DNA of 43,888 nt from an uncultured Flavobacteriaceae bacterium. GTDB taxonomy: Bacteria; Bacteroidota; Bacteroidia; NS11-12g; UBA955. Where the stretch lies: NCBI GenBank assembly GCA_964431045.1, contig CAYSIK010000001.1, forward strand, positions 1 through 43,888. Direction: 5' to 3'. Shown one piece after another: positions 8,312-31,387 of this stretch. Every line of letters starts with the position of its first letter. The stretch's first letter is position 1. Position numbers and translations under genes: made by a program. The notes under the pieces were generated by a model that saw only the letters and a program-made list of their open reading frames with translations, was not told where the DNA came from and searched no databases.

Positions 8312-8944
8312 CTAGCCGCGCCAGCCTTGCGGATTTTTTGCAAAATCAAGAACGGGCTGCAATTTTTCGGCGGGTAAAAATCCTTCATTTACGGCCACTT
8401 CGCACAAAGTTGGAAAATTGCTGATGGTATAGAAAGGAATATGGGCTTCCCTGAAACGTTGTTCAGCGTCCGGAAAACCATAGGTAAACAATGCCAGCAA
8501 GCCCACCACTTCACCACCGGCTTCCCGAACAGCATCGGCGGCCTGCAGGCTGCTTTTTCCGGTGCTGATAAGATCTTCGATCAACACCACCTTATCGCCC
8601 GGCTGCATTTTCCCTTCAATCTGGTTCTTCAGTCCGTGCTTTTTTGGCTCGGGGCGAACGTAGCAATAGGGCATATCCAGCACATCCGCTGCCAGCGCGC
8701 CGTGGGCAATGCCCGCCGTGGCGATTCCGGCAAGCAGACCGGCTTCAGGAAAATGCGTTTTGGTCATCGCGGCCAGTTCATTTTTTACTAGGTTTCTAAC
8801 CTCCGGAAATGACAATACCATGCGATTGTCGCAGTAAATGGGAGATTGGATTCCTGATGTCCACGTGAAGGGATGGTCAGGATTGAGTTTAACAGCGTGA
8901 ATTTCCAAAAGAAATTTTGCTAACTTTGCAGCTCTTTGGTCCAT
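8312..8944 (-). CDS. pyrE: Orotate phosphoribosyltransferase
   Basis: 210 aa. N-terminus FLLEIHAVKLNPDHPFTWTSGIQSPIYCDNR and PRPP loop VVLIEDLISTGKSS. Confidence 0.9.
   Translation of the reverse strand: MDQRAAKLAKFLLEIHAVKLNPDHPFTWTSGIQSPIYCDNRMVLSFPEVRNLVKNELAAMTKTHFPEAGLLAGIATAGIAHGALAADVLDMPYCYVRPEPKKHGLKNQIEGKMQPGDKVVLIEDLISTGKSSLQAADAVREAGGEVVGLLALFTYGFPDAEQRFREAHIPFYTISNFPTLCEVAVNEGFLPAEKLQPVLDFAKNPQGWRG
8921..8928 (+). promoter_or_regulatory. -7 box TAACTTTG for the NUDIX gene, lying inside the first codons of pyrE
   Basis: TAnnTTTG match 14 nt upstream of ATG 8943. Confidence 0.4.
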
Positions 8945-9590
8945 GGGCCTGCAAAGCTATAAAATATACTTCAACGATGGCGCAATTGTCATTGCCGATT
9001 CTCCTGCCGCGTTCAAGGGTCTGCCTAATTTGTTTTACATAGATGATGATGAAATTCACAAGAGTTTCAATATTCTAACCTCATCTGTAAGCACAGGCAA
9101 AGCACTGAATTACGGGCTTGTCAACCCTGAACCGGAACTCATTTTCCGCGATTTTCTGGATAATTACACAGTCATACAGGCCGCAGGCGGGCTGGTGCTG
9201 AACAAGGAAAATCAGCTGTTGACCATCAAGCGCAACGGTTTGTGGGATTTACCCAAGGGCAAAATTGAGCGCCATGAAGACCAGCGCGCCGCTGCGCTCA
9301 GGGAGGTTATGGAAGAAACCGGTCTTAACATGCTCAATATTAGTGACAAAATCGGGGAAACCTATCACGCCTATTTTGAAGACGAAGCCGTTTTGCTCAA
9401 AGAAACCCACTGGTATAAAATGAACAGCAGTGGCAAAGGAAAACTCAAACCGCAGGAAGAAGAGGGTATTTCAGACGTGAAATGGGCAGACCTTGAGTGG
9501 TTTAAAAGTGCCGAGTTCGACACCTACCACAGCGTGAAAGACATCATTAGCAAACTGCTGGCCCACGAAACCGCTGCTGCCGAAGAATAA
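8943..9590 (+). CDS. NUDIX hydrolase with an intact Nudix box
   Basis: GKIERHEDQRAAALREVMEETGL fits GX5EX7REUXEEXGU exactly. Confidence 0.8.
   Translation: MGLQSYKIYFNDGAIVIADSPAAFKGLPNLFYIDDDEIHKSFNILTSSVSTGKALNYGLVNPEPELIFRDFLDNYTVIQAAGGLVLNKENQLLTIKRNGLWDLPKGKIERHEDQRAAALREVMEETGLNMLNISDKIGETYHAYFEDEAVLLKETHWYKMNSSGKGKLKPQEEEGISDVKWADLEWFKSAEFDTYHSVKDIISKLLAHETAAAEE
8952..8959 (-). promoter_or_regulatory. -7 box TAGCTTTG (minus strand) for pyrE, lying inside the first codons of the NUDIX gene
   Basis: The plus strand reads caaagcta, 7 nt upstream of the pyrE ATG (8944). It mirrors the 8921 box across the CCATGG centre. Confidence 0.4.
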
Positions 9591-9592
9591 CA

Positions 9593-10054
9593 TCAGGCCC
9601 TAACCTGAGCCGGCACAAAACGGGTGTAATCTCCCTTGTAAATTATCAAATCCCGCACCAGGCTGCTTGAGATGTAACTCACTTCAGGAGATGTGATTAC
9701 AAACACTGTTTCAATCATTGGATTAAGTTCTTTGTTGAGCTGTGCAATGTGTGCTTCATAGTCATAATCGCTACCGTTGCGCAGACCCCTGAGGATATAT
9801 CCGGCGCCCACTTGTTTGCAAAAATCCACGGTGAGGCCACTGTAAGACGCTGCCGAAACTTTGGATTCCGCTGCAAATATTTCGCGAATCCATGTCAGGC
9901 GCTTTTCGGTATCAAACAGGGTTTGCTTCTTGGTGTTTTCGCCAATGGCGATAATGATTTTATCAAACAGGGGCAGGCTTCGAAGGATTACATCCACGTG
10001 CCCGTTGGTGATAGGGTCGAACGTGCCGGCAAAGACCGCAATTCGGGATTCCAT
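9593..10054 (-). CDS. coaD: Phosphopantetheine adenylyltransferase
   Basis: 153 aa with AVFAGTFDPITNGHVD (T/HxGH nucleotidyltransferase motif) and ISSSLVR near the C-terminus. Confidence 0.92.
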   Translation of the reverse strand: MESRIAVFAGTFDPITNGHVDVILRSLPLFDKIIIAIGENTKKQTLFDTEKRLTWIREIFAAESKVSAASYSGLTVDFCKQVGAGYILRGLRNGSDYDYEAHIAQLNKELNPMIETVFVITSPEVSYISSSLVRDLIIYKGDYTRFVPAQVRA

Positions 10055-11338: not shown

Positions 11339-14300
11339 ATGCGCAAAACCATCTTCGCAACCGGCCTGATGCTGCTTTTTTCATCGCTTTCAGCACAGCT
11401 GCTTCCCTGGGCCAAAGGCAACACCTACCGCAGGGCCGACAACCCTATGTACTGGAAAAACAAGCAACCCTATGAAGGTTACTGGCAACAGGACGTTTAC
11501 TACCAAATCAAGGCAAATTTGGATGATGTGTCCGAAACCATAGACGGAGAGCTGCGCCTGGTGTATTACAACAACTCACCGCACACCCTAAATGAGGCCT
11601 ATTTCCATTTGTACCAGAACGCTGTTCAACCCGGAAGCCTGGTGGATGAACTATACAACAAAAACAAAACACCCCACACCTTTGGCCCCTATGAAAAAGA
11701 GAAAAAGGGAACCGAAATTTTATCCTTTCAGGTGAATGGCGTTTCGGTTGATTACAACATTGATTACACCGTGCTGAAATCTGCGCTGGATAAGCCCCTG
11801 GCTTCCGGAGACAGCTGTGTGTTTACCATTCGTTTCAAAACCTATTTCGACCGCGGAACCATCCGCCGCCGCATGAAAGTGTATGACCACCATGGCTATA
11901 AGCATTTCAACGGGGTGCACTGGTATCCCCGGATTTGTGTGTATGACCGCAAATTCACCTGGGAAACCGCCCAGCACATGGAACATGAATTTTACGGTGA
12001 TTTCGGCGCCTACGATGTAGAGCTGAACCTTCCCAATCACTATGTGAACGAAGCCACAGGCACCCTGCAAAACCCCGAAACCGTCTATCCCGGTGATTTA
12101 CGCCAGAAACTGGACATTAAAAACTTCTCCAACAAGCCTGTGGGTTCGCAGCCATCCGTGATTGTGGCACCCGACGGAACCCTAAAGTCGTGGCGCTCCC
12201 ATGCCCGACACGTGCATGATTTTGCGTGGACCGCCGACCCTACCTACCGCATTGGCGAAGCAAACTGGAATGGCGTGCAGTGTATAGCACTTGCCCAGGA
12301 AAACAACGCCGCAGGCTGGCAGCAAAGTGCGCAATTTACCGCCGATGTAATTGCTGTTTACAGCAAAGATTTTGGCATGTACGAATATCCCAAAATGGTG
12401 GCCGCAGATGCTGCTGATGGCATGGAATATCCCATGCTTACCCTGGATGGAGGCATGTATCCCAGCCACCAGGGACTGATAGCGCACGAAGTGGGCCACA
12501 ACTGGTTTTTTGGCATGCTCGGCAACAACGAAACCTACCGTGCCAGTTTGGACGAAGGTTTCACACAGTTTCTTACCTCATGGAGCATGAAGCAGCTTAG
12601 CAGCCGCAAAGGGATTGGTGTGGATTATGGCACCGTGTATGCCGGCTATATGTTTGATGCCCTTGACGGTGAAGATGCCATCCTAAATACCCACAGCGAT
12701 GATTTTGAAAACGCCATCGGCCACGGTGGCGGCTACCGCCATGTGTATTACAAAACCGCTACCATGCTGTATAACCTGCAGTATGTGCTGGGCGATGAGG
12801 TGTTTTTGAAAGCCATGAAAGATTATGTGAAACAGTGGAAAATCTGCCATCCGTATGTAGAAGATTTCCGCAACAGCGTTACCATGAGTGCCAAAACCGA
12901 CCTTAACTGGTTTTTCGACCAGTGGTTTGAAACCCGCAAGGCCGCCGATTATGCGCTGAAGGTGAAGAAGAAAAAAGATGTGTATTCCATCACCGTAAAG
13001 CGCAAGGGCGATATGGTTATGCCGGTGGATGTGACAATCATGGGGCAAGATGCCAATAAAGATGTCTACCTGCTCAATTACACCATTCCGGTGAGCCAGT
13101 ATCAAAAACCGGGGACTACCAACCTGAAACCCTGGATTGGCTGGGGCAAACTGCGTCCCACCTACACATTCGAAATAAAACCACCCGGAAAAGTGAGCTC
13201 GGCACATTTAGATCCGTCTCTGCGCCTGGCCGATATCAACCGCATGAATAATTACTGGCCGCGCAAAAACTCCTGGGAGTTTGACAAAGACAATGGCAAA
13301 GACAACAGCTTTCTGGGTGGCTACAAGATGCAGTGGAGGCCCGATTTGTGGTATAATACCGAAGACGGAATCAAACCGGGCTTCTTGTGGAACGGACAAT
13401 ATGCCATGCGCAGGCATGTGGCAGAACTGGGTGCCTGGTATGGCACGGGCGCAGGTGTTTATGAGGCCTTGCGACGCACCTCACCGCAGGACAAACTTTC
13501 CTACCTTTTCAATTATTCGCATGATTTAAGGGGTAAAGGCATATTGACGCTGCACAGTCGCTACCTGGCGGGTGTGGAAATGCACAAGGCCGGATGGAGC
13601 ATTGATGGTCATAAAGGTACCTGGTATGCAGGCTGGAAATACATGGAGCGTCACAGGTTTGAATACTTGTATCCATACGGCGATGTGAACCAGGGGGCCG
13701 GTTTTCTGCCACAGGCCGGATTCTGGAGCAATGGCATCAACAACACCATCACACTGGGGCGCAGACAAACCTACCGCACCTTTCACGGCAATGGCAGTAT
13801 AGATATGTCGCTGCGCAACGCGCTGACATGGGGCAATGCCCGTTTCAGCATGGCAAAGGTTACCTGGTTAAACGAGATCAGGGGCAACAAACTGGATTTG
13901 CGCACCCGCGTTTTTGCGGCGATTTCCAAAGGCGGGCGTCTGCCGGCCGAATCGGCCATTTATGCCTGGGGTGCGTCGCCGGAGGAATTGCAGGACAACA
14001 AATTCACCCGCGATCTGGGCAGCATTACGCTGTCCGATATGAATATGAATCAGTCAAACATCGGTACAGCGCTTACCATGGGAGGCGGACTCAATATTCG
14101 CGGCATGCAGGGTTATTTGTTGCCTACGGCAAAGCAGGACACCGTGGTGTCCATGTTCAGGGGCAACCGGGGCGCATCGGTAAATGCTGAACTGGATTTC
14201 AGCCGATTGTTTGCTTTTATGCCCAAAATCAGCATGCTTTCAGCCAACATTTATTTGTTTGGCGATGCAGGTGTAATGGGAATGCCTTTGAATGGAAAAC

Positions 14301-18081: not shown

Positions 18082-18510
18082 TTAGTTTCCGATAATAACA
18101 GACTTGGGTTTTTCGGGCTCTTTTACCACAATACCGGTAATGGTAAGGGTTACATCGCCGCCGTTGCTGTACACAAAAATGTTTTTGGTAAAGTTGCCGG
18201 GGCGACCTGAGCTGTTATACTCTGCAGTCACCACAGCCGTTGCTCCGGGAGCGATGGCTTCGCGGGGCCACTTGGGAGAAGTGCAGCCACAGCTGGCCTG
18301 CACATTGCTCAATATCAGCGGATCGGTGCCCGTATTGGTGAATTTGAAATCATAGCGGGCAATCTGGCCTTCAATAACATTACCAAAGTTATGGGCAATG
18401 TTCTCAAATTTCACTTTGGCATTGCTTGCGGGCGTTGCTGCGGGCTGATCCTGCGCAACGGCACTGCCGAATGCTGCTACAACTAAGAGGGAGAAAAGGA
18501 GCTTTTTCAT
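18082..18510 (-). CDS. DUF1573 domain secreted protein (paralog 2 of 3)
   Basis: Signal peptide MKKLLFSLLVVAAFGSAVAQ, then FKFTNTGTDPLILSNVQASCGCTSP. Confidence 0.78.
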   Translation of the reverse strand: MKKLLFSLLVVAAFGSAVAQDQPAATPASNAKVKFENIAHNFGNVIEGQIARYDFKFTNTGTDPLILSNVQASCGCTSPKWPREAIAPGATAVVTAEYNSSGRPGNFTKNIFVYSNGGDVTLTITGIVVKEPEKPKSVIIGN

Positions 18511-18532: not shown

Positions 18533-18946
18533 TTATTTCAGCTGGGTACCGTTGCCGGCAGGACTTTCGGTAGATACGGTTCCGGTGATGGTGAGGTCAG
18601 TGCTTGCGCCGTTGTCGAAAGATACTTTCACGGACTTCTGGAAGAAACCGGGACGACCTTCGGTACCATAGCTTGCCTTTACTTCACCGGTTTTGCCGGG
18701 CATTACGGGCGTTTTGGTGTAGGTTGGTGTAGTACATCCACAGCTGGGGGCAGCAGCGGTGATAACCACAGGTGCTTTTCCGTTGTTGGTGAAAGTGAAC
18801 GTTACTTCAGCAGGAGGACCCATTTTCACAGTGCCGAAATCATGGGTGGTTTTGTTCCACTTGATGGTTTCATTCTGCTTAATACCTGCTACCAGCATGG
18901 CAGTGACAGCCATGGCAGCGAATCCGAGAGTAAAAATCTTTTTCAT
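18533..18946 (-). CDS. DUF1573 domain secreted protein (paralog 1 of 3)
   Basis: Trimmed to ATG 18946 (MKKIFTLGFAAMAVTAMLVAG), then FTFTNNGKAPVVITAAAPSCGCTTP. Confidence 0.78.
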   Translation of the reverse strand: MKKIFTLGFAAMAVTAMLVAGIKQNETIKWNKTTHDFGTVKMGPPAEVTFTFTNNGKAPVVITAAAPSCGCTTPTYTKTPVMPGKTGEVKASYGTEGRPGFFQKSVKVSFDNGASTDLTITGTVSTESPAGNGTQLK

Positions 18947-19126
18947 GGTTTTGTTGTTTTGCAAAAAGAATATCAACAACTGTACCAAAAAAATAACTGC
19001 TTCCCAGCCTGAAGAAAAAATGTTGGTCAAAACCCCTATTTGAATTGCGATAATCAGAAGAAATTTTCCAAAATATTCTGTTCAATAAAAACCCTCAAAA
19101 GGCTTATCATTTTTGGAAATATTAAT

Positions 19127-19145
19127 TATTGTACTTTTTACAATA
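19127..19145. promoter_or_regulatory. Candidate operator TATTGT-N7-ACAATA on the promoter of the NrtR-like regulator operon
   Basis: tattgt-acttttt-acaata. The right arm overlaps the first two bases of the -7 box at 19144-19151. The same palindrome with the same spacing occurs at 31346 and 31369. Confidence 0.55.
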
Positions 19146-19151
19146 TATTTG
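19144..19151 (+). promoter_or_regulatory. -7 box TATATTTG for the glycan-utilisation operon
   Basis: TAnnTTTG match 10 nt upstream of ATG 19162. Confidence 0.45.
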
Positions 19152-19161
19152 CTTCTGTCCC

Positions 19162-19857
19162 ATGAAAAATCTCAAGAAAATTCTCAAGCAATACTTCAAC
19201 GTTGCCGTTTCGGTAGATAACGTGGTGTTTGGTTTTGACGCCGACGGACTTAAGGTTCTCCTCATTTCCCGTGGTTCCGAGCCTTTCACCGGCTCCTGGG
19301 CCCTTCCCGGTGACCTGATTTCACCCGAAATGGACCTCGAATATTCTGCAGAGAAGATCCTGAAACAGCTTACCGGGCTGGATCAGGTGTACATGGAACA
19401 GATACAAACCTTTGGTAGCGTGGACCGTCACCCGTTCGGACGTGTGTTCACCATTGCCTATTTCGCCCTTATTAAGGTAGAGAATTACCACCCACAGGCC
19501 GCTTCATGGGCCAAGGATGTGGCGTGGTTCAAGGTTACTGAAATCCCAAAATTGCCTTTTGATCACCGCGAAATACTGGAATACGCGCGCCGTCTGCTGA
19601 AAAACCGCATCCGCACTCAGACGCTGGTGTTTGAGCTTTTGCCTAAATATTTTACCCTCACCGAACTGCAGTTTATTCATGAAAGTATCCTCGAAGAAGA
19701 ATTTGATGTAAGAAACTTCAGAAAAAAGATATTGTCTTCGGGTATCATCGAAGAGACCGGTAAAATGCAAAAAAATGTAACGCACCGTCCGGCTATGTTA
19801 TACCGATACAATGCAGCAAAGGCCAAGCAGCTTGGTTTTGAAGGAGGTATTCTGTAG
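19162..19857 (+). CDS. NrtR/AraR-type transcriptional regulator (degenerate NUDIX domain plus C-terminal winged helix)
   Basis: Trimmed to ATG 19162. The Nudix box reads GDLISPEMDLEYSAEKILKQLTGL, so RE-x-x-EE is replaced by EK-x-x-KQ and the domain is probably non-catalytic. The C-terminal FTLTELQFIHESIL...FDVRNFRKKILSSGII...RPAMLYRYN resembles the NrtR winged-helix domain. Confidence 0.72.
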   Translation: MKNLKKILKQYFNVAVSVDNVVFGFDADGLKVLLISRGSEPFTGSWALPGDLISPEMDLEYSAEKILKQLTGLDQVYMEQIQTFGSVDRHPFGRVFTIAYFALIKVENYHPQAASWAKDVAWFKVTEIPKLPFDHREILEYARRLLKNRIRTQTLVFELLPKYFTLTELQFIHESILEEEFDVRNFRKKILSSGIIEETGKMQKNVTHRPAMLYRYNAAKAKQLGFEGGIL

Positions 19858-21225
19858 TGAGAGTTCTCGCGGTCATATTCGTTTTTATGGCAGCGCAATT
19901 GCCTGTTGCAGCCCAGCCTGCAAAGATTTCGCTTATCCAAAAAAACGGACAATGGCAGCTGCTCAAGAATGGACAGCCCTATTACATAAAAGGCGCCGGA
20001 GGAACGGTACAGCTCGACCTTTTGGTTGAGTGCGGCGGTAATACCATCCGCACCTGGGGAATAGATGATGCGCAGCGCATTTTGGACGATGCTGGGAATG
20101 TGGGTGCAACACGAACGTCACGGCTTCGATTATGATAACAACCTGGCGGTTCAGAAACAGATACAGCATTTCAAATCGGCAGTGGACCGCTACAAAAACC
20201 ATCCCGCCCTACTGATGTGGGGCATAGGCAATGAGGTGGATTTGTTTTACAGCAATACCAAAGTTTGGCACAGTATTCAGGCTATTGCCAAGTATGTTCA
20301 CGATACCGATCCCAACCATCCTACATGCACCGTTACGGCCGGACTGGATTCACTGGAAGTTCAGCACATCCGCGAAAAAGCCCCCGATATTGATATATAC
20401 GGCGTAAATACCTATGGGGATATTGCCGGTGTGCCGAAAAATATTGGACGGTTTGGCTGGACAGGTCCCTACATGATAACCGAATGGGGCCCCAATGGGC
20501 ATTGGGAATCGCCGGTTACACCCTGGAACGCGGCAATCGAGCAATCCAGCCGCGAAAAAGCCGATGTGTACTGGGAGCGATATGTAAAATATATCATGGC
20601 TGACAGCCAGCACTGCATTGGTTCCTATGTGTTTTTATGGGGACAAAAACAGGAATATACCCTCACCTGGTATGGCTTGTTTACCAAAGATAACAAGCAA
20701 ACCGAGGCCGTGGATATGCTTTATGAACTTTGGAACAGAAAGAAACCGCCAATACCAACACCCACCTTACATAGCCATGGCCTGCTGATTTATTTAGGGG
20801 TGGGAAATGCCCAAAAGACGCTGTTGGGTGCGGCGTCCGACAACATTTTCCTGACCGCAGGCTCCTTAAATACGGCCATTGTGAAACCCAGACTGCTTAG
20901 GGCTTCGCAAGAAGAAAGCAGCAATCCCCGCAGCTATCGCATTGAATGGAAGTTGCTTGCGGAAAGTGACGATAAAAAAGCCGGAGGCGATATGGAAAAT
21001 GAAGCTTCCGAAATTGGCGGTTTTATCAAAAAAGCCAAAGATTTTGAATTGCAGTTCAAGGCACCACGGCAGCCCGGTGCCTATCGTTTGTTTGTAACCA
21101 TCCATTACAAAAACAAGGTCGCCTATGCCAATGTGCCTTTTATGGTTAAGGATGCGGCTTCAGATGAAGGTAGTAAAGCACTCAGGTTTAAAAGATACGA
21201 CTTACAAAGTTTTGACCAGCCATGA
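19857..21225 (+). pseudogene. Secreted clan GH-A (TIM-barrel, GH2-C/GH5-like) glycoside hydrolase split by a frameshift near 20090-20103
   Basis: The 92-aa ORF at 19857..20135 has a GTG start overlapping the regulator's TAG. It carries the signal peptide MRVLAVIFVFMAAQLPVAAQ and ends ...NTIRTWGIDDAQRILDDAG. The sequence continues in the +1 frame (ORF 20065..21225) as WVQHERHGFDY...LMWGIGNEVD...YMITEWGP, with NE as acid/base and TEWG as nucleophile. The two ORFs overlap by 71 nt. Confidence 0.55.
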
Positions 21226-23075
21226 TGAAGAAATACGCACATATTGTATGGACGATATGGCTGGCGACGGCCGTTATGGCAGCATCAGCCCAGGATACTA
21301 TAAAGCTCAGCGAAACACCGGGTGTACATCCCAAAGCGCCTATGCCATCCCTGGAACGCTTCCAGGTGTCTGGCTATTACAGATTTATCACCAATGTGCG
21401 CCAACTGCAGGAAGGGTATTCCGACCAGATGAAAACCCCACTGAACATTTTCGTGGGCGATGACAGCCAGATTCCGCAATTATTACTGAACATGGGCGGC
21501 AGTATATCCCCCAACACCCGGTTTTATACTGACTTTTATCTGTGGACACCCATGATGGGCGGTGGAATGGTCGAAAATGTGAAAGGACTTAACCTCGGCG
21601 TAAGCCTTACCGGTACCCATGATTTTGAAAAAGGCACCCTGCAGGTACAGACAGGTGGTATCAACTGGTATTCCCTCACGCCTTTCACCTTCTTTTCCAA
21701 CCCCGGCTTTAACCGTTTTACGGTATTTGAGCGCAACCCCTGGGACCCAATGACCCGCAATGCTATGGATCGGTATCAGACCTTTTACCAGACCGGAGCC
21801 ATGAACCAGGATACACGCTGGGGCAGACAGGCTTTTCAGGGTTTGATTATGGACCTAAGTAACCTTCCCAATGGTTTTTCAGGGGTGCTGATGTACGGCA
21901 AAACCCAGCTGAACGGAGGTATGACCCCATTGCCCAACCACAGCCTGGGCGGTAAAATCAAAAACGGGAACGAAAACCGCTACATCAGTGTCAATACTTT
22001 CAACAACCAAACCTATTCCGACTCCCTGCTGAGCAGCACACTGGGTTTTAATGTTCATACTGCAGAATTTGTGTGGAAAAAACAAGGCTGGAAAATCTAC
22101 GGTGAAACCGGTGCCGGACGCTATTACAGTAATTCATACAATAAGGGCTGGGGTGAAGCCATATCGTTGAAACTGGATATCCCACAGCGCGTATTGCGTG
22201 TACCCCTGCAAATCCACTACTTCCGCATCAGCCCCAAAGTGATCAACAACAGCAGTGTATTCTGGAATTCTGCCATTCAGGAAGGCAACAATACCGGGGC
22301 GCAAAGCGAAGCCCAGCTTGTGCTGGCCCCTTTTTCGAGTGCCATGGTGCCGGTGGGCCAGCTCACCAATAACCGCACAGGTATTGAGCTGAACTCAGAA
22401 ACCAAAGCCGGCCGCTTCCGCATCAATGCGGGATACACCATTGCCAAAGAACTGGAGCGCATTGCCTCACAAATCACCTATTCGCACCCGGTTAATAACC
22501 TGGCTCTGTCGCGTTTCTGGCGATGGTCTTTCCCTGCGGGAGTGGGGCCCTATAAAAACCTGACCAAGGTGTACCGCGGGGTATATGAGTCGGTGGATTT
22601 GAGGGATGTGGATGCACAACAAGTGCCATTGAACGATAAATATTTCAATACTGCTGAACTTCAGATTAAATACAAAACCCAACTGGGCGGAAAAGAGCTG
22701 TTCATAAACTATCTGGGAACCTATGCATCGGTACAGTCTTTTGCCTCACCATTTACCGTGTTTACCGAAAAAGCCTATCTCCGCACGTATTACCACCAGT
22801 TGGAATCTTACCTAAAACTGGCCAGAAACCTTGTGTGGTGCAATTACGCAGGCGCCGAAAGAATCATCGCCAATTACGATACCCGAACAGATGCCATTAG
22901 CCGAAGGCCTAAAAATCAGGAGGGATATGGCATTGCTACCGGTTTTGACATAGAAATGAGCAAGGGCGCAGGCCTCTATATACGTCAGAGAAAAATGTAT
23001 TATACAGACCGCAGCTTCAGTAAAGACAGGTACCGCGGATGGGAAACCACCGTAGAATTAAAAATATTCTTTTGA
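21222..23075 (+). CDS. Predicted outer-membrane beta-barrel protein (OMP-A of a paralogous pair), unknown family, not TonB-dependent
   Basis: Signal peptide MMKKYAHIVWTIWLATAVMAASAQ. Amphipathic alternating-residue stretches run throughout. The C-terminus GWETTVELKIFF has an aromatic end typical of a beta-signal. No plug domain or TonB box is visible. The ATGATG start overlaps the upstream TGA. Confidence 0.6.
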   Translation: MMKKYAHIVWTIWLATAVMAASAQDTIKLSETPGVHPKAPMPSLERFQVSGYYRFITNVRQLQEGYSDQMKTPLNIFVGDDSQIPQLLLNMGGSISPNTRFYTDFYLWTPMMGGGMVENVKGLNLGVSLTGTHDFEKGTLQVQTGGINWYSLTPFTFFSNPGFNRFTVFERNPWDPMTRNAMDRYQTFYQTGAMNQDTRWGRQAFQGLIMDLSNLPNGFSGVLMYGKTQLNGGMTPLPNHSLGGKIKNGNENRYISVNTFNNQTYSDSLLSSTLGFNVHTAEFVWKKQGWKIYGETGAGRYYSNSYNKGWGEAISLKLDIPQRVLRVPLQIHYFRISPKVINNSSVFWNSAIQEGNNTGAQSEAQLVLAPFSSAMVPVGQLTNNRTGIELNSETKAGRFRINAGYTIAKELERIASQITYSHPVNNLALSRFWRWSFPAGVGPYKNLTKVYRGVYESVDLRDVDAQQVPLNDKYFNTAELQIKYKTQLGGKELFINYLGTYASVQSFASPFTVFTEKAYLRTYYHQLESYLKLARNLVWCNYAGAERIIANYDTRTDAISRRPKNQEGYGIATGFDIEMSKGAGLYIRQRKMYYTDRSFSKDRYRGWETTVELKIFF

Positions 23076-24802
23076 TGAAAAAACAAGTAAAACATAGCAT
23101 TAAGTTTTTAGGCCTTCTTACAGCAGCCACTCCGCTGTGGCTTTCAGCCCAAAACACCCCTAAATTCAGTATGAAAGGCGGAGCACGTTCGGTTTTGGCC
23201 AACTCAGAATTGCAGGTAAAAGACAGTGTTCCCGATAAGGTTACCGCTCCTAAAAACGCCGGAGGATATGCCCTCATAGACCTGGGTTTCAATATCCGTC
23301 CTAACAAGAACACCGAAATTTTGGGCATGATCCGCATCAACAACCGCTTTGGCGGTTTCTGGGGTGCAGGGGTAACCTTTGATGTGCGTCAGCTTTGGCT
23401 GAAAGGCGTGATTGCCGATAAAATCCGTTACCAGCTGGGCGATATTAACCTGAAACAGACCCCGTTTACTTTCTGGAACCACGATGAGGACCGGTGCATG
23501 CAACAGCCTGCTGTATTTGACCTTCAGCGGGATATTGTAAATTACGAATCTTTTTATGTGCCCGGAACATGGCGTCAACAGGGTGCGGAGGCAGATTTTG
23601 GATTGGAATCCGTAAAACTCAAATCTGACTGGAATTTTCATGGATACCTTACCCGATTGAACGCCACCAACTTTGGCAGCCAGCCCGAACGCCTGCACAC
23701 AGGAGCAACCGCCAACTGGGTTTGGAACAAAAAAGCTACCCTGGCCTACAATATCAGCCGAATTTTTGATGTTAAGGAGACCGCCACACAACCACTGTTG
23801 TTTCAGAATACGGTGCAAACCTTGTCGTGGGAATGGAAGCAGGCCTTCGGAAAACAGCAGTTCACCCTCGGAGGTGAAGCCGGCAATTCATCCTACCGCA
23901 TCGTACACGATACAGCATCACCCCATCTGCAAGACTTTTTTGCTCATGGTTTTGTAAAAGTTGCACCCAATGGCAAACGCTGGGAGGCTGAAGCAGGTTA
24001 TATCAATGTGGGTCCCGATTTCAGAAGCATAGCGGCGCAATCTAAACGCATTGATTACAATGCACAACCCTTATTGTATAATCGCTATACCCAAATGCAA
24101 ATAGACCGCCCCCTGCACCTGCTGGATTTTATTGGTAATGCCAATCTTTACCGAAATGGAATCAGTACAAAGCTGATGGCCTACAATCCTCTGGTAAACA
24201 ATGTACTTCCTTACGGAATCGCGACCTTTAACCGGCAAGGTTTTTATGCAAAAGCGAAGTATAATATTGTAAAAAATACAATAACATTGGATGCACAACA
24301 CTGGCGCTTGTCTGAAATTTTGGGTCAGGGAACACCCGAACTCAAAAAGATGGATATGACCCGGCTCGATGTAAACTGTGATGCAGGCAAGTTGCTCGGA
24401 ATAAAAAAACAGGCTAAACTGCATGTGTCGGCATGTAACCAGAATACCCGGCGCAAGAGTCCGCGTGCCTACGAAGAGCTGGATTTAAACTCTCTGCAAT
24501 GGTCGGCCGGCATGGAAATGGAGGTAATGAAGGACATTGATGTGCTGGGCGGCTACACCTCCCTGCAAGGAAAAGGAAATGATCAGACGGCCGTGCGCAA
24601 TGAATACACCGAAGTGATTGATTTTGCAGGCTTTTCAGCCAATCAGCGACACAGCACAGCTGCCGCCGGACTCAGGGTGCGTTTTGGCGGTAAAACCTAT
24701 CTGGCACTCATGTATCAGCGTATGCAGTACCAAAACAAGGCCCAGGCATTCCGGGATTACAGCATCGGACAAATGCAGGCCATTTATAACATGACATTCT
24801 GA
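23075..24802 (+). CDS. Predicted outer-membrane beta-barrel protein (OMP-B, distant paralog of OMP-A)
   Basis: Trimmed to ATG 23075 (TGATG overlap), giving MKKQVKHSIKFLGLLTAATPLWLSAQ. The C-terminus is GQMQAIYNMTF. It shares with OMP-A an ordered set of motifs: I-x-PN, G-x-IN-x3-4-TPFTF and W-x-x-Q. Confidence 0.6.
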   Translation: MKKQVKHSIKFLGLLTAATPLWLSAQNTPKFSMKGGARSVLANSELQVKDSVPDKVTAPKNAGGYALIDLGFNIRPNKNTEILGMIRINNRFGGFWGAGVTFDVRQLWLKGVIADKIRYQLGDINLKQTPFTFWNHDEDRCMQQPAVFDLQRDIVNYESFYVPGTWRQQGAEADFGLESVKLKSDWNFHGYLTRLNATNFGSQPERLHTGATANWVWNKKATLAYNISRIFDVKETATQPLLFQNTVQTLSWEWKQAFGKQQFTLGGEAGNSSYRIVHDTASPHLQDFFAHGFVKVAPNGKRWEAEAGYINVGPDFRSIAAQSKRIDYNAQPLLYNRYTQMQIDRPLHLLDFIGNANLYRNGISTKLMAYNPLVNNVLPYGIATFNRQGFYAKAKYNIVKNTITLDAQHWRLSEILGQGTPELKKMDMTRLDVNCDAGKLLGIKKQAKLHVSACNQNTRRKSPRAYEELDLNSLQWSAGMEMEVMKDIDVLGGYTSLQGKGNDQTAVRNEYTEVIDFAGFSANQRHSTAAAGLRVRFGGKTYLALMYQRMQYQNKAQAFRDYSIGQMQAIYNMTF

Positions 24803-25806
24803 TGAAAATGAAAAATATAATTCGCATATTGCCCCTGCTATTCCTCATTGCTTCCTGTAAGCGCGACAATAAGCAATTTGAAGGCCCCAGCCTGGAAGAT
24901 CTAAACGGTCCGTTTGCAATGGTAAAACCTTTCACCGCGAGCAAAACAGCCGCTGATTTTTCAAAAGGAGAAACCATCACATTTGGTGCTGAATTTACCA
25001 AACAGTGCGACTGGACCATCACCATCTACGGCGATTTGAGCAAAGCGCGGAAAATTATCAGCGGCAAATCCAGAACAGTAGACGCCGGAAATGCTACCTG
25101 GGAAGGAACAACCACGGTATTGCCCGCCTTCCGAACAGAACCTTGCAAGGCAGTATTGAAAATTGCCGGGGTTACAGACAGCTTTAGCCTAAATCTGGGT
25201 GTCAACGGGGTGCGTGTGCCCAAAGGTCTTGTTATTGCTGACTTTGAAAGCGGCCTGAATATCAAATGGAATACATTTATTCAGTCCGGAGCCAATATGG
25301 ATTTCAAAGTAAAAACCGATGCTTTTTCCGTTCAGGGAAAGAATTACCTGAATATGGCCGGTACGGTTTCATGGGACTGGCTTATCGGACTGATTGATTT
25401 TCCCGCTTCAGCCTACGGCTCGCCCACGCTGGCCTTGAGCACCGTTCCGGAAGATGTGTATTTCAATTGCCTTATTTATGGCGATGCAACACCCAATCCA
25501 AGCAGGGTATTGTTTCAGTTCAAAGAAGATGATAACAACAACAAAACCTTTGATCCCAGTGCCGATGACCAGTTTGACAAGGAAATCATTGTAAACTGGC
25601 AGGGTTGGAAACTCGTTTCATTCAAATACAGCGATCTGATCCACCTCAGCAATGGGCAACCCGCTCCCAACAACGGAAACAACCGCCACAACCCAAACAG
25701 CATCGTTACCCTCTCTATGCTGCACCTGGCGAACCCCTCCATGGGTGCAGCCGGCACCAAAATTGACTACCTGATATTTACCGATAAGTCACCCTTGCAA
25801 TTGTGA
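24802..25806 (+). CDS. Surface lipoprotein, putative glycan-binding beta-sandwich (CBM-like)
   Basis: Lipobox LFLIASC. A mid/C-terminal VIADFESG...WN...NYLNMAGT...WQGWKLVSFKYSDL pattern resembles galactose-binding-like/CBM folds, but this is weak. The TGATG start overlaps the upstream stop. Confidence 0.5.
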   Translation: MKMKNIIRILPLLFLIASCKRDNKQFEGPSLEDLNGPFAMVKPFTASKTAADFSKGETITFGAEFTKQCDWTITIYGDLSKARKIISGKSRTVDAGNATWEGTTTVLPAFRTEPCKAVLKIAGVTDSFSLNLGVNGVRVPKGLVIADFESGLNIKWNTFIQSGANMDFKVKTDAFSVQGKNYLNMAGTVSWDWLIGLIDFPASAYGSPTLALSTVPEDVYFNCLIYGDATPNPSRVLFQFKEDDNNNKTFDPSADDQFDKEIIVNWQGWKLVSFKYSDLIHLSNGQPAPNNGNNRHNPNSIVTLSMLHLANPSMGAAGTKIDYLIFTDKSPLQL

Positions 25807-26495
25807 TGAACAGGATTACAGCAACACTAACCGTATTGCTTTTGTGGGGCTCGGCATGGGCTCAGGATTCTGCTGTGCGCAACATAGATACTGTTCATAT
25901 CAAAAATAGCGTGTTGCGTATGAAAAACCTGGGGCTGTACGACCGTTCCGAAACTTCTCCAACCCCTGAAATAGGCGGCTTTGGTGCCTTGCAGCTATTT
26001 GATGAGAATATGGGTTCTGAAATCTGGGTTTCCAAAGAACAGGCCTGTGTAACCGTAAACAAAGACAAAACAAATCCCTACAGCGGAGAATACTGTATGC
26101 GCGCCAAGTGGGATAAAATTGCCGGCGGCTGCAAATGGATTGGAATGGGATTTGGCTGGGACAACTGGCAACCCAAAGACTTGTCCGGTATAGTGGATTC
26201 TGCCTGCATTCAAATGCAGATCCGTTCGCAAACCGATACCCTCAAATCATTGCCGCTGGCCCTGGCGCTCGAAGATTATACAGGGGCGCAATGTTTTATC
26301 GGGTTTTCACCCAAATACCTGAATGGCAAGCGAATCATGCCCGGCAGCTGGACCCCTGTTACTATTCCTCTCTCAGACTTTCCCTTTGAACGTTTTCAGA
26401 CACAATCCGATATGATCAAACAATTTATTATTCAGTTTGAGGCTGACGGGGATGTCTATATTGACAATATCAAACTGGTTAGAAAAAGCAGGTAA
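25806..26495 (+). CDS. Secreted protein, putative carbohydrate-binding module (CBM11/CIA30-like beta-sandwich)
   Basis: Signal peptide MNRITATLTVLLLWGSAWAQ. The C-terminal WTPVTIPLSDF...IKQFIIQFEADGDVYIDNIKLV is typical of CBM beta-sandwich ends. The function call is tentative. Confidence 0.45.
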   Translation: MNRITATLTVLLLWGSAWAQDSAVRNIDTVHIKNSVLRMKNLGLYDRSETSPTPEIGGFGALQLFDENMGSEIWVSKEQACVTVNKDKTNPYSGEYCMRAKWDKIAGGCKWIGMGFGWDNWQPKDLSGIVDSACIQMQIRSQTDTLKSLPLALALEDYTGAQCFIGFSPKYLNGKRIMPGSWTPVTIPLSDFPFERFQTQSDMIKQFIIQFEADGDVYIDNIKLVRKSR

Positions 26496-26500
26496 GCTAT

Positions 26501-28735
26501 ATGAAAAAAGGCTTTAAAATACTTTTATCGATTTGTGTTTTTGTGTTTTTTAATACAATAAGTGCACAGAATAGCCGTGATGCAGCGGTAGAAAACCGCA
26601 TAAAGGCAATGACTTTGGAAGAAAAAGTAGGCCAAATGTCGCAGATTGACCTGGGTGTGCTGGCCGTGGGAAAGATTTGTGAGGTCTCCGACCCGATACG
26701 ACTTGACACTGCCAAACTCCGCCTGGCTTTTCAGCGCTACAAAGTGGGTTCCGTGCTCAACTGTGGTTGCGGTTTTCATGCCCTCAGCCGCAAACGCTGG
26801 CTGGAACTCATTGACAGCATTCAGCAGGCAAACAGCCTTTACACAAAACACAGCATCCCTGTATTGTATGGCATAGATGCCATTCACGGTGCCAATTATA
26901 CCCTGGGCTCAACCCTGTTTCCCCAGCAAATTGGGCAGGCTGCGACATGGAATCCTGAACTGGTAAAAGCTGCAGCACAAATTACTGCCTACGAAACACG
27001 TGCCTCAGGCATACCCTGGAACTTTTCGCCGGTGCTGGATATTGGCCGGCAACCCCTGTGGTCAAGGTTTTTCGAGACCTATGGCGAAGATGTGTGTCTG
27101 GCCAAAAGGATGACGAATGCCTGTATTTCGGGTTATCAGGGCAACACCTTCGGAAATGAACAGGTGGCGGCATGTATGAAGCATTTCCTGGGCTACAGCT
27201 ATCCGCTGAGTGGCAAGGACCGCACCCCCGTTTGGATTGGTGAACGGGAACTGAGGGCCTATTTTCTGCCCACATTTCAGGAAGCCATCCGGCTGAAAGC
27301 CAAAACCCTGATGATTAACTCCGGAGAGCTAAATGGTGTGCCTGTTCATGCCAGCTATCCCATTCTCACAACCCTGCTTAGAGAAGAACTGGGCTTTGAA
27401 GGCGTGGCGGTTACCGATTGGGAAGATGTATACAAACTGCATACCACCCACAAAGTAGCCGAAACACTGAGAGATGCCGTGAAAATGGCCGTGATGGCGG
27501 GTATCGATATGAGCATGACTCCCAATGATTTTCAGTTTAATGAACTGTTAGTGGATCTGGTAAAATCGGGTGAAATTCCGGAAAGCCGCCTGGATATGTC
27601 GGTGCGGCGCATACTGAAACTGAAATCAGATTTAGGCCTTGAAGGAAATGTAAGCTTGCCTTCACTGGCCGATTATCCGTTGTTTGGCTCAGACAGCTTT
27701 GCCCATGTGGCCAATGATGCCGTTGCTGAATCGATAACCCTGCTGAAAAATGAGGGAGATGTATTGCCCCTGTCACCCGGATCCAAAGTATGGTTGATGG
27801 GAAATGCTGCCAACAACCTCAACTACCTGAATGGAGCCTGGTCACAAACCTGGCTGGGACAGGACACAAGGTTCAATGAATCGGGTAAATTGACCATTCT
27901 GCAGGCTTTGCAAGCCGGTTATGGCAAGGATCAAATTACGGAGGTAACGCCTCAATACGTGATGCAGAACCAACGTAAATCAAAACGCCTGCCCGGCGCG
28001 GTAGTTTATTGCCTTGGAGAAACGCCTGCCACGGAAATCCCCGGAAACATTAATGATTTGGCCATTACCATCCCGGATGAAGACCGCAAGGCGCTGGAAT
28101 TATTAAAGGCCCGAAAAGTACCTGTAGTGCTGGTATTGCTTTTGGCAAGGCCGCGCATCATAACCGATCTGGATAAACTGAGCCGAGCCGTGGTACATGC
28201 CTACATCCCCGGTCAGGAGGGAGCAAAGCCGCTGGCGGACTTATTGTATGGCAAAATCAATCCTTCAGGCCGTTTGCCCTTTACCTACCCGCGTTCTTCT
28301 GGAGATATTGTACACTATGACCGTAAACGCACTGAAGACAATGATATCAATTTCGGAAGCAGTGCCTACAATCCGCTGTATGATTTTGGCCACGGCCTTT
28401 CCTATACCCGTTTTGATTACTGGGGCATGAGCGTCAAGCCTGAGAATGACACATTTGTTATTCAGGTTCTTGTAAGAAATACAGGAAATCGCGAGGGCAA
28501 GGAAGTTGTGCAGGTATACTACCGCGATGAATACGCACCGATTACCCCCTCCCAGAAAAAACTATGCGCATTTAGCAAGGTAAATCTTAAGCCCGGGCAG
28601 GATGCTGCTGTTACCCTTAAAGTTCCCTTCTCCGATGTGGGAGACATTGGCGCTGATATGAAACCCTTTAAAGCATCCGGTACCATTGTTTTCCGTGCCG
28701 GACAACAAACCGTAACCCTTAACCACAAACCCTGA
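26501..28735 (+). CDS. Glycoside hydrolase family 3 beta-glucosidase (BglX-like), secreted
   Basis: 744 aa with a signal peptide. MTLEEKVGQM, GIDAIHGAN, KHFLGY and the nucleophile region GFEGVAVTDWED are present, with a C-terminal Fn3-like tail. Confidence 0.9.
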   Translation: MKKGFKILLSICVFVFFNTISAQNSRDAAVENRIKAMTLEEKVGQMSQIDLGVLAVGKICEVSDPIRLDTAKLRLAFQRYKVGSVLNCGCGFHALSRKRWLELIDSIQQANSLYTKHSIPVLYGIDAIHGANYTLGSTLFPQQIGQAATWNPELVKAAAQITAYETRASGIPWNFSPVLDIGRQPLWSRFFETYGEDVCLAKRMTNACISGYQGNTFGNEQVAACMKHFLGYSYPLSGKDRTPVWIGERELRAYFLPTFQEAIRLKAKTLMINSGELNGVPVHASYPILTTLLREELGFEGVAVTDWEDVYKLHTTHKVAETLRDAVKMAVMAGIDMSMTPNDFQFNELLVDLVKSGEIPESRLDMSVRRILKLKSDLGLEGNVSLPSLADYPLFGSDSFAHVANDAVAESITLLKNEGDVLPLSPGSKVWLMGNAANNLNYLNGAWSQTWLGQDTRFNESGKLTILQALQAGYGKDQITEVTPQYVMQNQRKSKRLPGAVVYCLGETPATEIPGNINDLAITIPDEDRKALELLKARKVPVVLVLLLARPRIITDLDKLSRAVVHAYIPGQEGAKPLADLLYGKINPSGRLPFTYPRSSGDIVHYDRKRTEDNDINFGSSAYNPLYDFGHGLSYTRFDYWGMSVKPENDTFVIQVLVRNTGNREGKEVVQVYYRDEYAPITPSQKKLCAFSKVNLKPGQDAAVTLKVPFSDVGDIGADMKPFKASGTIVFRAGQQTVTLNHKP

Positions 28736-29580: not shown

Positions 29581-29590
29581 AAACAAAAAA

Positions 29591-29607
29591 GGAGGCACAA
29601 GGCCTCC
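29591..29607. terminator. Bidirectional terminator hairpin between the convergent GH16 and T9SS genes
   Basis: ggaggc-acaag-gcctcc, flanked by an A-rich run upstream (aaacaaaaaa, 29581-29590) and ctcttt downstream. Confidence 0.55.
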
Positions 29608-29631: not shown

Positions 29632-31299
29632 TTATTTGCTGTTGATGAAGATGCGCTCCTGATAGCTGCCTTCTGTGGTATTGATAACCATCAGATACAT
29701 GCCGGATTTGGCGCTGTTAAGATTGATTTCGGTGTTGATGGCTTTGCCGGTGAAACCTCTGCTGTAAATCTTCTGTCCTACTACATCAAAAATTTCAATG
29801 TTTCCTGAGGTCAGATTGCTGAATGAAGCGGAAACGTTGAAGCGTCCGTTACCGGGATTTGGGAATACTTTCACACCATTGGCGGTAATGCCTGAATTGC
29901 CCAACGTAGCGCAGCTAACACATTTTTCCCAGCACACAGCAGGCAGGGTTGTATCTGCTTTCACAACACCCATGCGGTTGGTAAACTGACCGGTTGTTTT
30001 GGTGCAGCTTTCACCACCTGTGAATGTTTCCTTGGCAGTCCATCCGTCTACAGTAAAGAGATATTCGAATGTATCGGTAGCGTTCAGGGGCAAGGTGATT
30101 TCATAGACCTTGTCGTTATCCGCATCGGTCATGGGATTGCAGGCACCGCACCAGCCATTGAAGGATCCGTTGATGTTCACGGCAGTGTAAGAACCTGTGT
30201 ATTTGCTCATATCTACCTTGAAAGTAACGTTTGCTTTTTCTTTGGTGTTGGCACAGCTTACGCAAGATTCAAAGCACACAGCATCAAGAACGGTGTTGCC
30301 CGTAATTTTCATAAAACGGTTGGTGTAACCTGCGGTAGTTTTGGTGCAGGATGAACCTTCCTTCATCATTTCCTTTACTGTCCAGCCATCGAGGGTAAAC
30401 AGAAACTCAATAGAATCCTGGGGCAATGGTAATTTCACTTCCCAGATACCGTCTTTGTCGGCATCGGCCATTGGATTGCAGTTTCCGCACCAGCCGTTGA
30501 AGCTGCCGTTTACAAATACACCGGTAAATGCAGCGCCTTTGTATTTGGCCATGTCTACCTTGAAAGTAACATCGTTGGTACACTCGCTGCAGCTTGCCCA
30601 GCAAACATTTGCCAGCACTTTAGAACCTGAAACTTTCAGGAAACGGTTGGTGTAGCCGCCGGTAGTTTTGGTGCACGAACTGCCTGAAGTTAGTTTTTCA
30701 TCGTCCTTCCAGTTGTCTACCTGAAATTTGTATTCAATGGAATCCTGTGTGATGTCGAAGGTACCGCTGAAAATTTTGTCACCGTCTGCATCTGTAAGCT
30801 GATTGCTATTGCCGGACCAGCTGTTGAAGTTGCCGGAAACATATACGTTGGTGTAAGAACCGCTGTATTGCTTCATGTTTACGTTGAAAGTAACCGATTT
30901 TTTGGTTACGGAAGAACAAGCTGCACAGCTTTCGAAACAAACCTTGCTTAAGGTAGTGTTGCCGGTAAGCTTTACAAAACGGTTGGTGTAGCCTGAAGTG
31001 GTTTTTGTGCAGGAGCTTCCGGGTGTAAGGGCTTCCTGTTTTGACCAGTTGTCCATGGTGAACTTGTACTCAATAGAGTCATCATTGATGTCGAAGGTGC
31101 CTTCCCACACGCCGTCAGCGTTAGCATCAGACAGCGCATTTCCGTTGCCGGACCAGCTGTTGAAAGTACCACTCACGTATACGGTCGTGAATGAGCCACC
31201 GGCGTAGTTGTTCATGTCAACCTGAAAAGTAACTTTCTTTTGAGCCCACAGGCCTGTCAAGAAAGCGCTCAGGAATAAAGCGGTAATGATTTTTTTCAT
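29632..31299 (-). CDS. T9SS-secreted protein with four tandem Cys-rich CBM-like modules
   Basis: Signal peptide MKKIITALFLSAFLTGLWAQ. Four modules of ~110 aa read VTFxVDM..Y...V.VSGxFNxW.G..N...DADxD..(W/F)...(F/L)......EYKF..D.W...E.....SCTKTT.GYTNRF.......L..VC(F/W)..C..C. The C-terminus VFPNPGNGRFNV...GMYLMVINT...IFINSK is a Por CTD. Confidence 0.78.
   Translation of the reverse strand: MKKIITALFLSAFLTGLWAQKKVTFQVDMNNYAGGSFTTVYVSGTFNSWSGNGNALSDANADGVWEGTFDINDDSIEYKFTMDNWSKQEALTPGSSCTKTTSGYTNRFVKLTGNTTLSKVCFESCAACSSVTKKSVTFNVNMKQYSGSYTNVYVSGNFNSWSGNSNQLTDADGDKIFSGTFDITQDSIEYKFQVDNWKDDEKLTSGSSCTKTTGGYTNRFLKVSGSKVLANVCWASCSECTNDVTFKVDMAKYKGAAFTGVFVNGSFNGWCGNCNPMADADKDGIWEVKLPLPQDSIEFLFTLDGWTVKEMMKEGSSCTKTTAGYTNRFMKITGNTVLDAVCFESCVSCANTKEKANVTFKVDMSKYTGSYTAVNINGSFNGWCGACNPMTDADNDKVYEITLPLNATDTFEYLFTVDGWTAKETFTGGESCTKTTGQFTNRMGVVKADTTLPAVCWEKCVSCATLGNSGITANGVKVFPNPGNGRFNVSASFSNLTSGNIEIFDVVGQKIYSRGFTGKAINTEINLNSAKSGMYLMVINTTEGSYQERIFINSK
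29905..31233 (-). repeat. Four in-frame tandem repeats (324-342 bp each) encoding the CBM-like modules
   Basis: Module boundaries are aa 23-135, 136-243, 244-357 and 358-465. DNA-level similarity is visible, e.g. ggtgtagcctgaagtggtttttgtgcagga, ggtgtagccgccggtagttttggtgcacga and ggtgtaacctgcggtagttttggtgcagga. Confidence 0.8.
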
Positions 31300-31323: not shown

Positions 31324-31331
31324 CAAAGGTA
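31324..31331 (-). promoter_or_regulatory. -7 box TACCTTTG (minus strand) for the T9SS CBM-repeat gene
   Basis: The plus strand reads caaaggta, 24 nt upstream of ATG 31299. Confidence 0.45.
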
Positions 31332-31345
31332 GAAAAAACCAATCA

Positions 31346-31364
31346 TATTGTAAAAAAAACAATA
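31346..31364. promoter_or_regulatory. Candidate operator TATTGT-N7-ACAATA (copy 1 upstream of the T9SS CBM-repeat gene)
   Basis: tattgt-aaaaaaa-acaata, 14 nt upstream of the -7 box, which places it in the -33 region. Confidence 0.55.
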
Positions 31365-31368: not shown

Positions 31369-31387
31369 TATTGTTAAAAGTACAATA
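31369..31387. promoter_or_regulatory. Candidate operator TATTGT-N7-ACAATA (copy 2 upstream of the T9SS CBM-repeat gene)
   Basis: tattgt-taaaagt-acaata, 23 bp start-to-start from copy 1. Confidence 0.55.

Follow-up and report, generated by a model that had tools for sequence, protein, structure and literature searches.

Three copies of the palindrome TATTGT-N7-ACAATA, one at the promoter of a NrtR-like regulator gene and two upstream of a convergent gene for a T9SS-secreted protein with CBM modules, raise the question of whether this element is an operator and, if so, which protein reads it. The copies had been noticed in a sequence-only reading of the 43,888-nt stretch of DNA analysed here (the window), which proposed that they belong to an autoregulated regulon. 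A motif search of the whole window recovered all three at the coordinates claimed (Table 1). However, it also uncovered a further exact copy, so that the four start at 19127, 24265, 31346 and 31369. The copy at 24265 lies within the CDS of the 575-aa outer-membrane protein gene and overturns the previous statement that no further copies exist in the window. Likewise, the claim that the copies are confined to the two promoter regions of the locus applies to the three known before, but not to this intragenic one. Four exact copies compare with 0.01 expected by chance per window, and none of 100 dinucleotide shuffles of the window contained four copies. Scanning of the 43.9 kb with a symmetrised position weight matrix trained on promoter-associated sites scored the four exact copies at 24–28 bits and returned a single weak match at 22125 (12.6 bits) and nothing else; simulated sequence yielded a mean of 0.15 matches of at least 10 bits. 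When up to two mismatches were allowed, the further near-matches in the window were all compositionally different or coding-constrained. With its flanks, the full site comprises 21 bp, that is wTATTGTw-N5-wACAATAw, with symmetric A/T flanks at all four sites.

Table 1. Positions of the predicted operators, promoter elements and genes of the locus within the window.
Feature	Position	Strand	Remarks
Predicted operator O1	19127..19145		TATTGTACTTTTTACAATA; exact; overlaps first two bases of the regulator/operon -7 box; ~-29 to -11 from deduced TSS
-7 box TATATTTG	19144..19151	+	TAnnTTTG type; operon promoter; invariant in alignment
NrtR/AraR-family regulator, 231 aa	19162..19857	+	Nudix-like effector domain and winged helix
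GH158 endo-beta-1,3-glucanase gene	19857..21225	+	GTG start overlaps regulator stop codon
OMP3, predicted outer-membrane protein, 617 aa	21222..23075	+	Signal peptide, C-terminal F; syntenic in all loci
Near-site TACAGTAATTCATACAATA	22125..22143		Inside OMP3; 2 mismatches, 12.6 bits
OMP4, outer-membrane beta-barrel protein, 575 aa	23075..24802	+	Signal peptide, C-terminal F; homologs all 'hypothetical'
Candidate auxiliary operator Oi	24265..24283		TATTGTAAAAAATACAATA; exact; in OMP4 codons N397-I403 (NIVKNTI)
Lipoprotein, 334 aa	24802..25806	+	Family without match
Protein with SGBP-B-like glycan-binding domain, 230 aa	25803..26495	+	PF18329, 2.5e-6
GH3 beta-glucosidase	26501..28735	+	Closest model is an exo-beta-1,3/1,6-glucosidase
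Lipoprotein, 281 aa	28735..29580	+	Last operon gene; co-occurs with GH3 in L020
Terminator-like GC hairpin	29591..29607	+	Past operon end, between convergent genes
T9SS-secreted protein	29632..31299	-	Repeated CBM48/CBM20-like modules and Por_Secre_tail; convergent to operon
-7 box TACCTTTG	31324..31331	-	CBM gene promoter; TAyCTTTG conserved
Predicted operator O2, proximal	31346..31364		TATTGTAAAAAAAACAATA; exact; ~-27 to -45
Predicted operator O3, distal	31369..31387		TATTGTTAAAAGTACAATA; exact; ~-50 to -68; O2-O3 23 bp centre-to-centre

The weak match at 22125 and a near-site at 24853, located in the signal-peptide codons of the lipoprotein gene, were considered as additional operators and rejected: both fall on codons that are conserved in the orthologous loci, and protein conservation therefore probably explains them. 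For the near-site in OMP3, versions with one mismatch are present at the same codons in five relatives (L002, L004, L005, L007, L008), and it is probably a by-product of the codons for the conserved peptide YYSNSYNKG. Elsewhere in the window, TAGTGTATGTTCAACACTT at 8255–8273 is one mismatch away from TAGTGT-N7-ACACTA, a related motif described below; it lies in a convergent spacer and shares bases with the stop codon of a gene for a GT2 glycosyltransferase. This occurrence is probably due to chance; alternatively, a paralog of the regulator that is encoded at another place could bind here.

Promoters of Bacteroidetes are characterised by the consensus elements -33 TTTG and -7 TAnnTTTG. Promoter elements were assigned as matches to this consensus, and the TSS positions were deduced from them. 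The -7 box of the regulator operon is the sole exact TAnnTTTG on the + strand within 19000–29600, and it shares its first two bases with the end of O1, which confirms that the first copy sits on this box. The description of the other two copies as a tandem pair, spaced by 23 bp and located at the -33 region of the CBM gene, was also borne out: O2 begins 14 nt upstream of the -7 box TACCTTTG, thereby covering the -33 region, and O3 follows 23 bp further upstream. The distance from TATATTTG to the ATG of the regulator gene (19151–19162) is ~10 nt, which implies a 5' UTR of ~6 nt and thus a nearly leaderless transcript; one of the relatives (L015) has a 16-nt insertion between -7 box and regulator start. 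The spacer upstream of the regulator gene contains a second invariant island, ATATCAACAACTGTACC (~18972–18993), which adjoins the start of a divergent DUF1573 gene (18533–18946) that has a paralog at 18082–18510. This island is probably the promoter of the DUF1573 gene or a site for another factor.

The gene downstream of O1 encodes a protein in which a Nudix-like domain at the N-terminus is followed by an NrtR winged-helix domain at the C-terminus (Pfam NrtR_WHD PF21906, 2.9e-25; AraR_C PF19368, 3.5e-12; NUDIX PF00293, 8.9e-8). Its closest solved structure is that of BtAraR (PDB 5bs6, E=6e-49), which corresponds to BT0354 of Bacteroides thetaiotaomicron and is also available as PDB 5dd4, 5ddg and 5deq. 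BtAraR is a repressor that is freed from DNA by arabinose; the dimer binds GTGT-N7-ACAC (AAAGTGTTACTTTTACACCC), covering 25 bp, whereby Lys179 forms a hydrogen bond with the first G of GTGT (G7), and R180, N181, K184, K204 and R205 provide the other DNA contacts (Chang et al. 2015, PMC4666351). All six residues are absolutely conserved in AraR orthologs, whose arabinose pocket comprises R34, R86 and H131 as well as F36, G47, G48, F49, V92 and F129 (PMC4666351). In the regulator encoded in the window, R180, N181, K184 and R205 (BtAraR numbering) are kept, whereas Lys179 is replaced by Val and Lys204 by His. The sugar-bonding triad R34, R86 and H131 is conserved together with V92 and F129, whereas the pocket differs from that of BtAraR by the replacements F36 to S, G48 to D, F49 to L and G89 to F; residues D51 and L52 are almost invariant across the subfamily. 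The Nudix box, which reads AEKILKQ, lacks the catalytic REx2EE glutamates. In addition, the protein scores 158.7 bits with the NCBIfam NrtR equivalog NF050029, which has a cut-off of 400, and no NAD genes are present at the sites. The combination of contact residues, GTGT-N7-ACAC operator and arabinose regulon and pocket that characterises AraR orthologs was not found either. Hence, the designation as NrtR-like is appropriate with regard to the NrtR_WHD and NUDIX domains, but the protein is neither an ADP-ribose/NAD-type NrtR nor an AraR ortholog. In relatives, the neighbours of the regulator gene include GH3, GH16, GH158, GH65, an SSF symporter and Entner-Doudoroff genes. From the gene content and the pocket substitutions we infer that the effector may be a gluco-sugar, that is glucose or a short beta-gluco-oligosaccharide. 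The window also encodes a stand-alone NUDIX protein (8943–9590; 215 aa, PF00293 2.7e-19, no winged helix), which lies 10 kb upstream beside a phosphoribosyltransferase gene and bears no relation to the regulator.

What does this regulator control? The genes of the operon are tightly packed or overlapping, and the presence of GH158 and GH3 enzymes indicates that the locus targets beta-1,3-glucan. The previous description as a glycan locus is to be corrected to a beta-1,3-glucan locus. The intact GH158 ortholog of the related locus L001 matches the GH158 structures 9oro (5e-96) and 6pal (3e-67). The gene in the window has a 26-nt deletion near 20089/20090 as compared to L001, L005 and L007, leading to a frameshift; the deleted segment of the relatives ends with GA, and GA is also found directly before the junction in the window. 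Either the gene has become a pseudogene in this genome, or the deletion is an assembly error. OMP3, OMP4 and the 334-aa and 281-aa proteins could not be assigned to a family by Pfam, NCBIfam or PDB sequence searches. An AF2 model of OMP4 (pLDDT 67) features a large beta-barrel formed by residues 170–575 and leaves the N-terminal 170 residues unmodelled; its comparison with known structures gave generic barrel matches only (TM 0.3–0.38). The operon encodes no SusC/SusD domains; the two barrels without Pfam family stand there instead, and the locus therefore does not qualify as a canonical SusC/SusD polysaccharide utilisation locus (PUL). A TonB-dependent receptor gene at 32436–35075 pairs with DUF4249 rather than with SusD. 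The OMP3/OMP4-type pair (21222–24802) recurs in three further loci (L020 12102–15779, L022 12483–16042, L025 5432–9048), in the place of SusC/D; these loci, too, have an NrtR-like regulator and encode the same lipoprotein, GH3 and SGBP-like protein. The CBM gene contains internal repeats of ~335 nt.

If the palindromes are operators, they should be retained where the regulator is retained. When species-representative genomes were searched with OMP4 as query, nine syntenic loci with OMP4 identities of 66–91% were obtained, which stem from freshwater Flavobacteriales and Bacteroidota MAGs. All loci that include the region upstream of the regulator gene possess an exact site fused to TATATTTG, and all loci that include the region upstream of the CBM gene possess the tandem pair. 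In the alignments, O1 is invariant between diverged flanks in seven loci (L001, L002, L003, L005, L007, L008, L015), and O2 and O3 are conserved in five (L001, L003, L006, L007, L008); in both spacers, operators and -7 boxes are the only invariant islands assigned to the operon and CBM promoters, and the rest has diverged. Moreover, the genes of regulators with 48–66% identity, which are found in other genera and next to other genes, are immediately preceded by a site that is exact or has one mismatch (L010, L013, L015, L017, L023, L025). The neighbours of these distant regulators belong to a GH16/SusCD laminarin-type PUL or a PF10091/GH3 PUL, encode GH65 or have no link to glycans. In three more lineages (L019, L020, L022), sites are also located in front of genes for T9SS-sorted proteins. 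Thus, the footprinting in relatives that had been called for supports the sites both in the orthologous loci and upstream of considerably diverged regulators.

Further information on the identity of the binding protein comes from the residue at the position of BtAraR Lys179. We added 80 further loci of relatives from metagenomes and classed the resulting ~90 loci according to this residue. The Val/Thr/Ile class (15 loci, 262 kb) contains 32 exact TATTGT-N7-ACAATA and no TAGTGT-N7-ACACTA sites, the Lys class (62 loci, 441 kb) contains one and 23, respectively, and the Arg class (14 loci, 134 kb) none of either, although there are fewer independent events than sites, as many of the loci are phylogenetically related. 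That is, the exact motif occurs once in 575 kb of Lys- and Arg-type loci, which include DNA of 28–40% GC, as compared to 32 times in 262 kb of Val/Thr/Ile-type loci. This rules out that the motif is simply common in AT-rich DNA, which had been named at the outset as a refuting outcome, and ties it to this regulator. The TAGTGT-N7-ACACTA sites of Lys-type loci are often arranged in tandem, 22–26 bp apart, immediately upstream of the regulator gene. The base by which the half-site TTGT observed here differs from the GTGT of AraR is the very base that is contacted by Lys179. Locus L017 encodes a Val-type and a Lys-type paralog, each beside its own type of motif: the Lys-type NrtR-like gene (5203–6100) is divergent from a HAD and GH65 operon with AAGTGTTAGATTGACACTA in the shared spacer, and the Val-type paralog, 4 kb away, has TATTGTTTAAAATACAATT. 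Judged from these motifs, L017 is a natural example of two paralogs predicted not to cross-react. An exception is provided by L020/L021, where a Lys-type regulator of the same type of operon has hybrid and T-type sites (9907–10003, 12040–12105). Its own promoter carries TATTGT-N7-ACACGA, the region upstream of OMP3 carries TAGTGT-N7-ACATTA followed by TATATTTG, and exact TATTGT-N7-ACAATA precedes two nearby T9SS genes. A strict one-to-one rule equating Lys with G and Val with T was discarded in view of this exception and since single-linkage clustering mixes the types. What remains is an asymmetric tendency, according to which Val/Thr/Ile types always occur with T, and Lys types mostly with G.

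How do these features relate to characterised systems? Most NrtR motifs exhibit 21-bp palindromic symmetry with a conserved GT-N7-AC core, and members of the NrtR family in Bacteroidetes control pentose utilisation (Rodionov et al. 2008, PMC2330246). As in BtAraR, we find the same domain architecture, a 21-bp palindrome with GT-N7-AC core and a regulator gene that is part of its own operon. The spacer is T-rich in both cases (GTGT-TACTTTT-ACAC for BtAraR, TTGT-ACTTTTT-ACAA here). Tandem BtAraR sites 3 bp apart precede araM (PMC4666351), and the distance between tandem sites is ~23–24 bp in either system. In contrast to BtAraR, all four half-site pairs in the window are of the TTGT rather than the GTGT type, exact sites also occur inside genes, and the regulon would consist of the GH158/GH3 beta-1,3-glucan genes and the gene for the T9SS CBM protein instead of arabinose catabolism. 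The family fold and the GT-N7-AC core are shared with canonical NrtR proteins such as SoNrtR (PDB 3gz5), and palindrome recognition by a dimer and autoregulation are predicted to be so as well, whereas the absence of NAD genes from the regulon, the low equivalog score and the missing catalytic glutamates set the protein apart. Taken together, four traits of a regulator/operator pair of the NrtR family were found, that is the domains, a 21-bp GT-N7-AC palindrome, conserved promoter sites and, L020/L021 excepted, covariation with a DNA-contact residue. We therefore consider TATTGT-N7-ACAATA as the predicted operator of the adjacent NrtR/AraR-family regulator, with a probability of roughly 85%. 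The autoregulated NrtR-family regulon envisaged at the outset is thus supported by domain content, the geometry typical of the family, conservation and a motif that is not generic.

According to the mechanism that we propose, the regulator would most likely bind as a dimer, each winged helix-turn-helix reading one TTGT half-site. O1 is placed between the -33 and -7 elements of the single promoter predicted to drive the regulator gene and the downstream operon. In this position and on the -7 box itself, bound protein would exclude RNA polymerase and would also autoregulate. Two dimers on O2 and O3 would cover the -33 region of the convergent CBM gene. By analogy to L-arabinose and BtAraR, a sugar derived from beta-1,3-glucan may bind to the catalytically dead Nudix-like domain, a degenerate Nudix domain that serves as sugar sensor in BtAraR and is likewise proposed to do so here, and trigger release from DNA. 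Finally, Oi would probably act as an auxiliary operator, either by looping or as a roadblock, which would allow basal expression of the regulator to be uncoupled from that of the distal genes.

The role of Oi is the part of this model that faces the strongest competitor. It is conceivable that the promoter sites are genuine, while the copy at 24265 and the intragenic copies of the relatives are neutral and devoid of any regulatory role. Indeed, the peptide specified by Oi, NIVKNTI, is an ordinary one and falls on a beta-turn in the AF2 model of the OMP4 barrel, the site is lost through single substitutions in L007 and L009, no consensus -7 box is found nearby, and a distance of 5.1 kb from O1 is far for looping. 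Accordingly, an internal promoter at Oi was dismissed, as the operon contains no exact TAnnTTTG on the + strand and TAACATTG, a near match following the site, is not conserved. However, neutrality would have to account for the number and the distribution of such sites. Exact sites are present at three independent positions among the orthologous operons. In clade A (window, L001, L005, L006), the site is in the middle of OMP4, with one mismatch in L007 and L009. In clade B, it is located in the signal-peptide codons of OMP4 (exact in L002 and L008, two mismatches in L003) and in the signal-peptide codons of GH3 (exact in L003 and L008). These positions are non-homologous, and each complete operon has one or two exact sites, whereas synonymous-codon shuffling within genes predicts ~0.01 per operon (0.012 for the window). 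The single site of the window operon was reached in 36 of 3000 shuffles, and the two sites of L008 in none of 3000; L001 and L003 have one each. In distant relatives, intra-operon spacers harbour secondary sites that are each accompanied by a -7 box (L020 12068; L022 10740), and in L020 the site is followed by TATATTTG directly upstream of OMP3. We treat the neutral reading as a serious but less likely possibility, and conclude that selection has probably favoured a secondary operator downstream of the regulator gene. At the place of the clade B sites in GH3 (L003 8909, L008 9198), the window has a right half-site, TACAATAAG (~26546–26563), which may be a relic or a precursor of an operator. 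Auxiliary operators within genes are known from the lac and gal operons, where O2 resides in lacZ and OI in galE. Oi resembles them as a full-strength operator copy inside a structural gene of the regulated operon, but differs in being located 5.1 kb downstream, well past classical looping distances.

A second point concerns the direction of control. O2 and O3 span ~-27 to -68 upstream of the core promoter, positions that are also used by activators, and the regulator could accordingly activate rather than repress the CBM gene. We deem this improbable: the characterised family members SoNrtR and BtAraR are repressors released by their ligands, O2 covers the -33 element and O1 overlaps the -7 box. 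More improbable still is that a different transcription factor, e.g. a global Crp-like sugar regulator, recognises the palindromes and that their adjacency to the NrtR-like gene is coincidental. In sugar operons of Bacteroides, an extra Crp-like palindrome is present beside AraR and XylR sites (PMC3878776), which offers a precedent for such co-sites. Moreover, in L020/L021 exact T-type sites are found next to a regulator that is of the Lys type and has hybrid sites at its own promoter, and a second protein could act there. However, the Crp-like motif TATGTT-N4-AACATA has another half-site and another spacing and is absent from the window, where no co-site of this kind was detected. The geometry of the palindromes is that of the NrtR family, the motif accompanies the regulator gene into unrelated neighbourhoods (L013, L015, L017), and it covaries with the DNA-contact residue. 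Finally, an origin of the palindromes by chance or composition, as RNA hairpins or as ends of small mobile elements is suggested at most by the AT-rich spacers and the ability of palindromes to fold, and can be dismissed in view of the shuffles and the single exact copy in 575 kb of control loci, hairpin energies of merely -2.8 to -3.8 kcal/mol without Rfam or tRNA match, and copies that share no extended flanks, their similarity ending ~21–28 nt from the centre.

Another system close to that of the NrtR/AraR-family regulator is BguR. This one-component regulator spans the membrane and controls laminarin PULs in marine Bacteroidota (bioRxiv 10.64898/2026.01.10.698779). Both are associated with beta-glucan loci of Bacteroidota, which in the case of BguR contain GH3, GH16, GH17, GH158 and GH144. 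However, BguR is an unrelated, membrane-embedded protein of the LuxR type and is encoded beside SusC/D. The BguR preprint makes no mention of NrtR/Nudix regulators, our full-text searches retrieved no literature linking such regulators to beta-glucan loci, and BguR (2026 preprint) was the only regulator of beta-glucan loci found in the literature searched.

The class of mechanism to which this system belongs is known, that is a sugar-responsive repressor of the NrtR/AraR type with a 21-bp palindromic operator, tandem sites and autoregulation. A specificity switch through a single residue and recurrent intragenic operators are possibly new features. More tentatively, and as a whole rather unlikely to hold in every part, a distinct NrtR/AraR-like clade may represent the dedicated regulator of SusC/D-independent uptake of beta-1,3-glucan, comprising GH158, GH3 and the OMP pair, and of T9SS glycan-binding proteins in abundant freshwater Flavobacteriales. 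In this scenario, specificity would have been recoded by one change in the recognition helix (Lys to Val/Thr/Ile, with G to T in the operator), so that paralogs coexist without cross-talk, and intragenic operators would have been selected repeatedly as roadblocks uncoupling the repressor, encoded by the first gene, from the distal genes. Little is known about how environmental Bacteroidota regulate glycan utilisation. For an abundant lineage of freshwater Flavobacteriales, the present work names a predicted soluble repressor of the NrtR/AraR type together with an operator and a regulon that are concrete enough to be tested, and links this repressor to a locus without SusC/D. It also offers a rule relating one residue to one base that is open to mutagenesis, and marks a T9SS CBM protein and two uncharacterised outer-membrane proteins as parts of what would be one co-regulated system for glucan capture.
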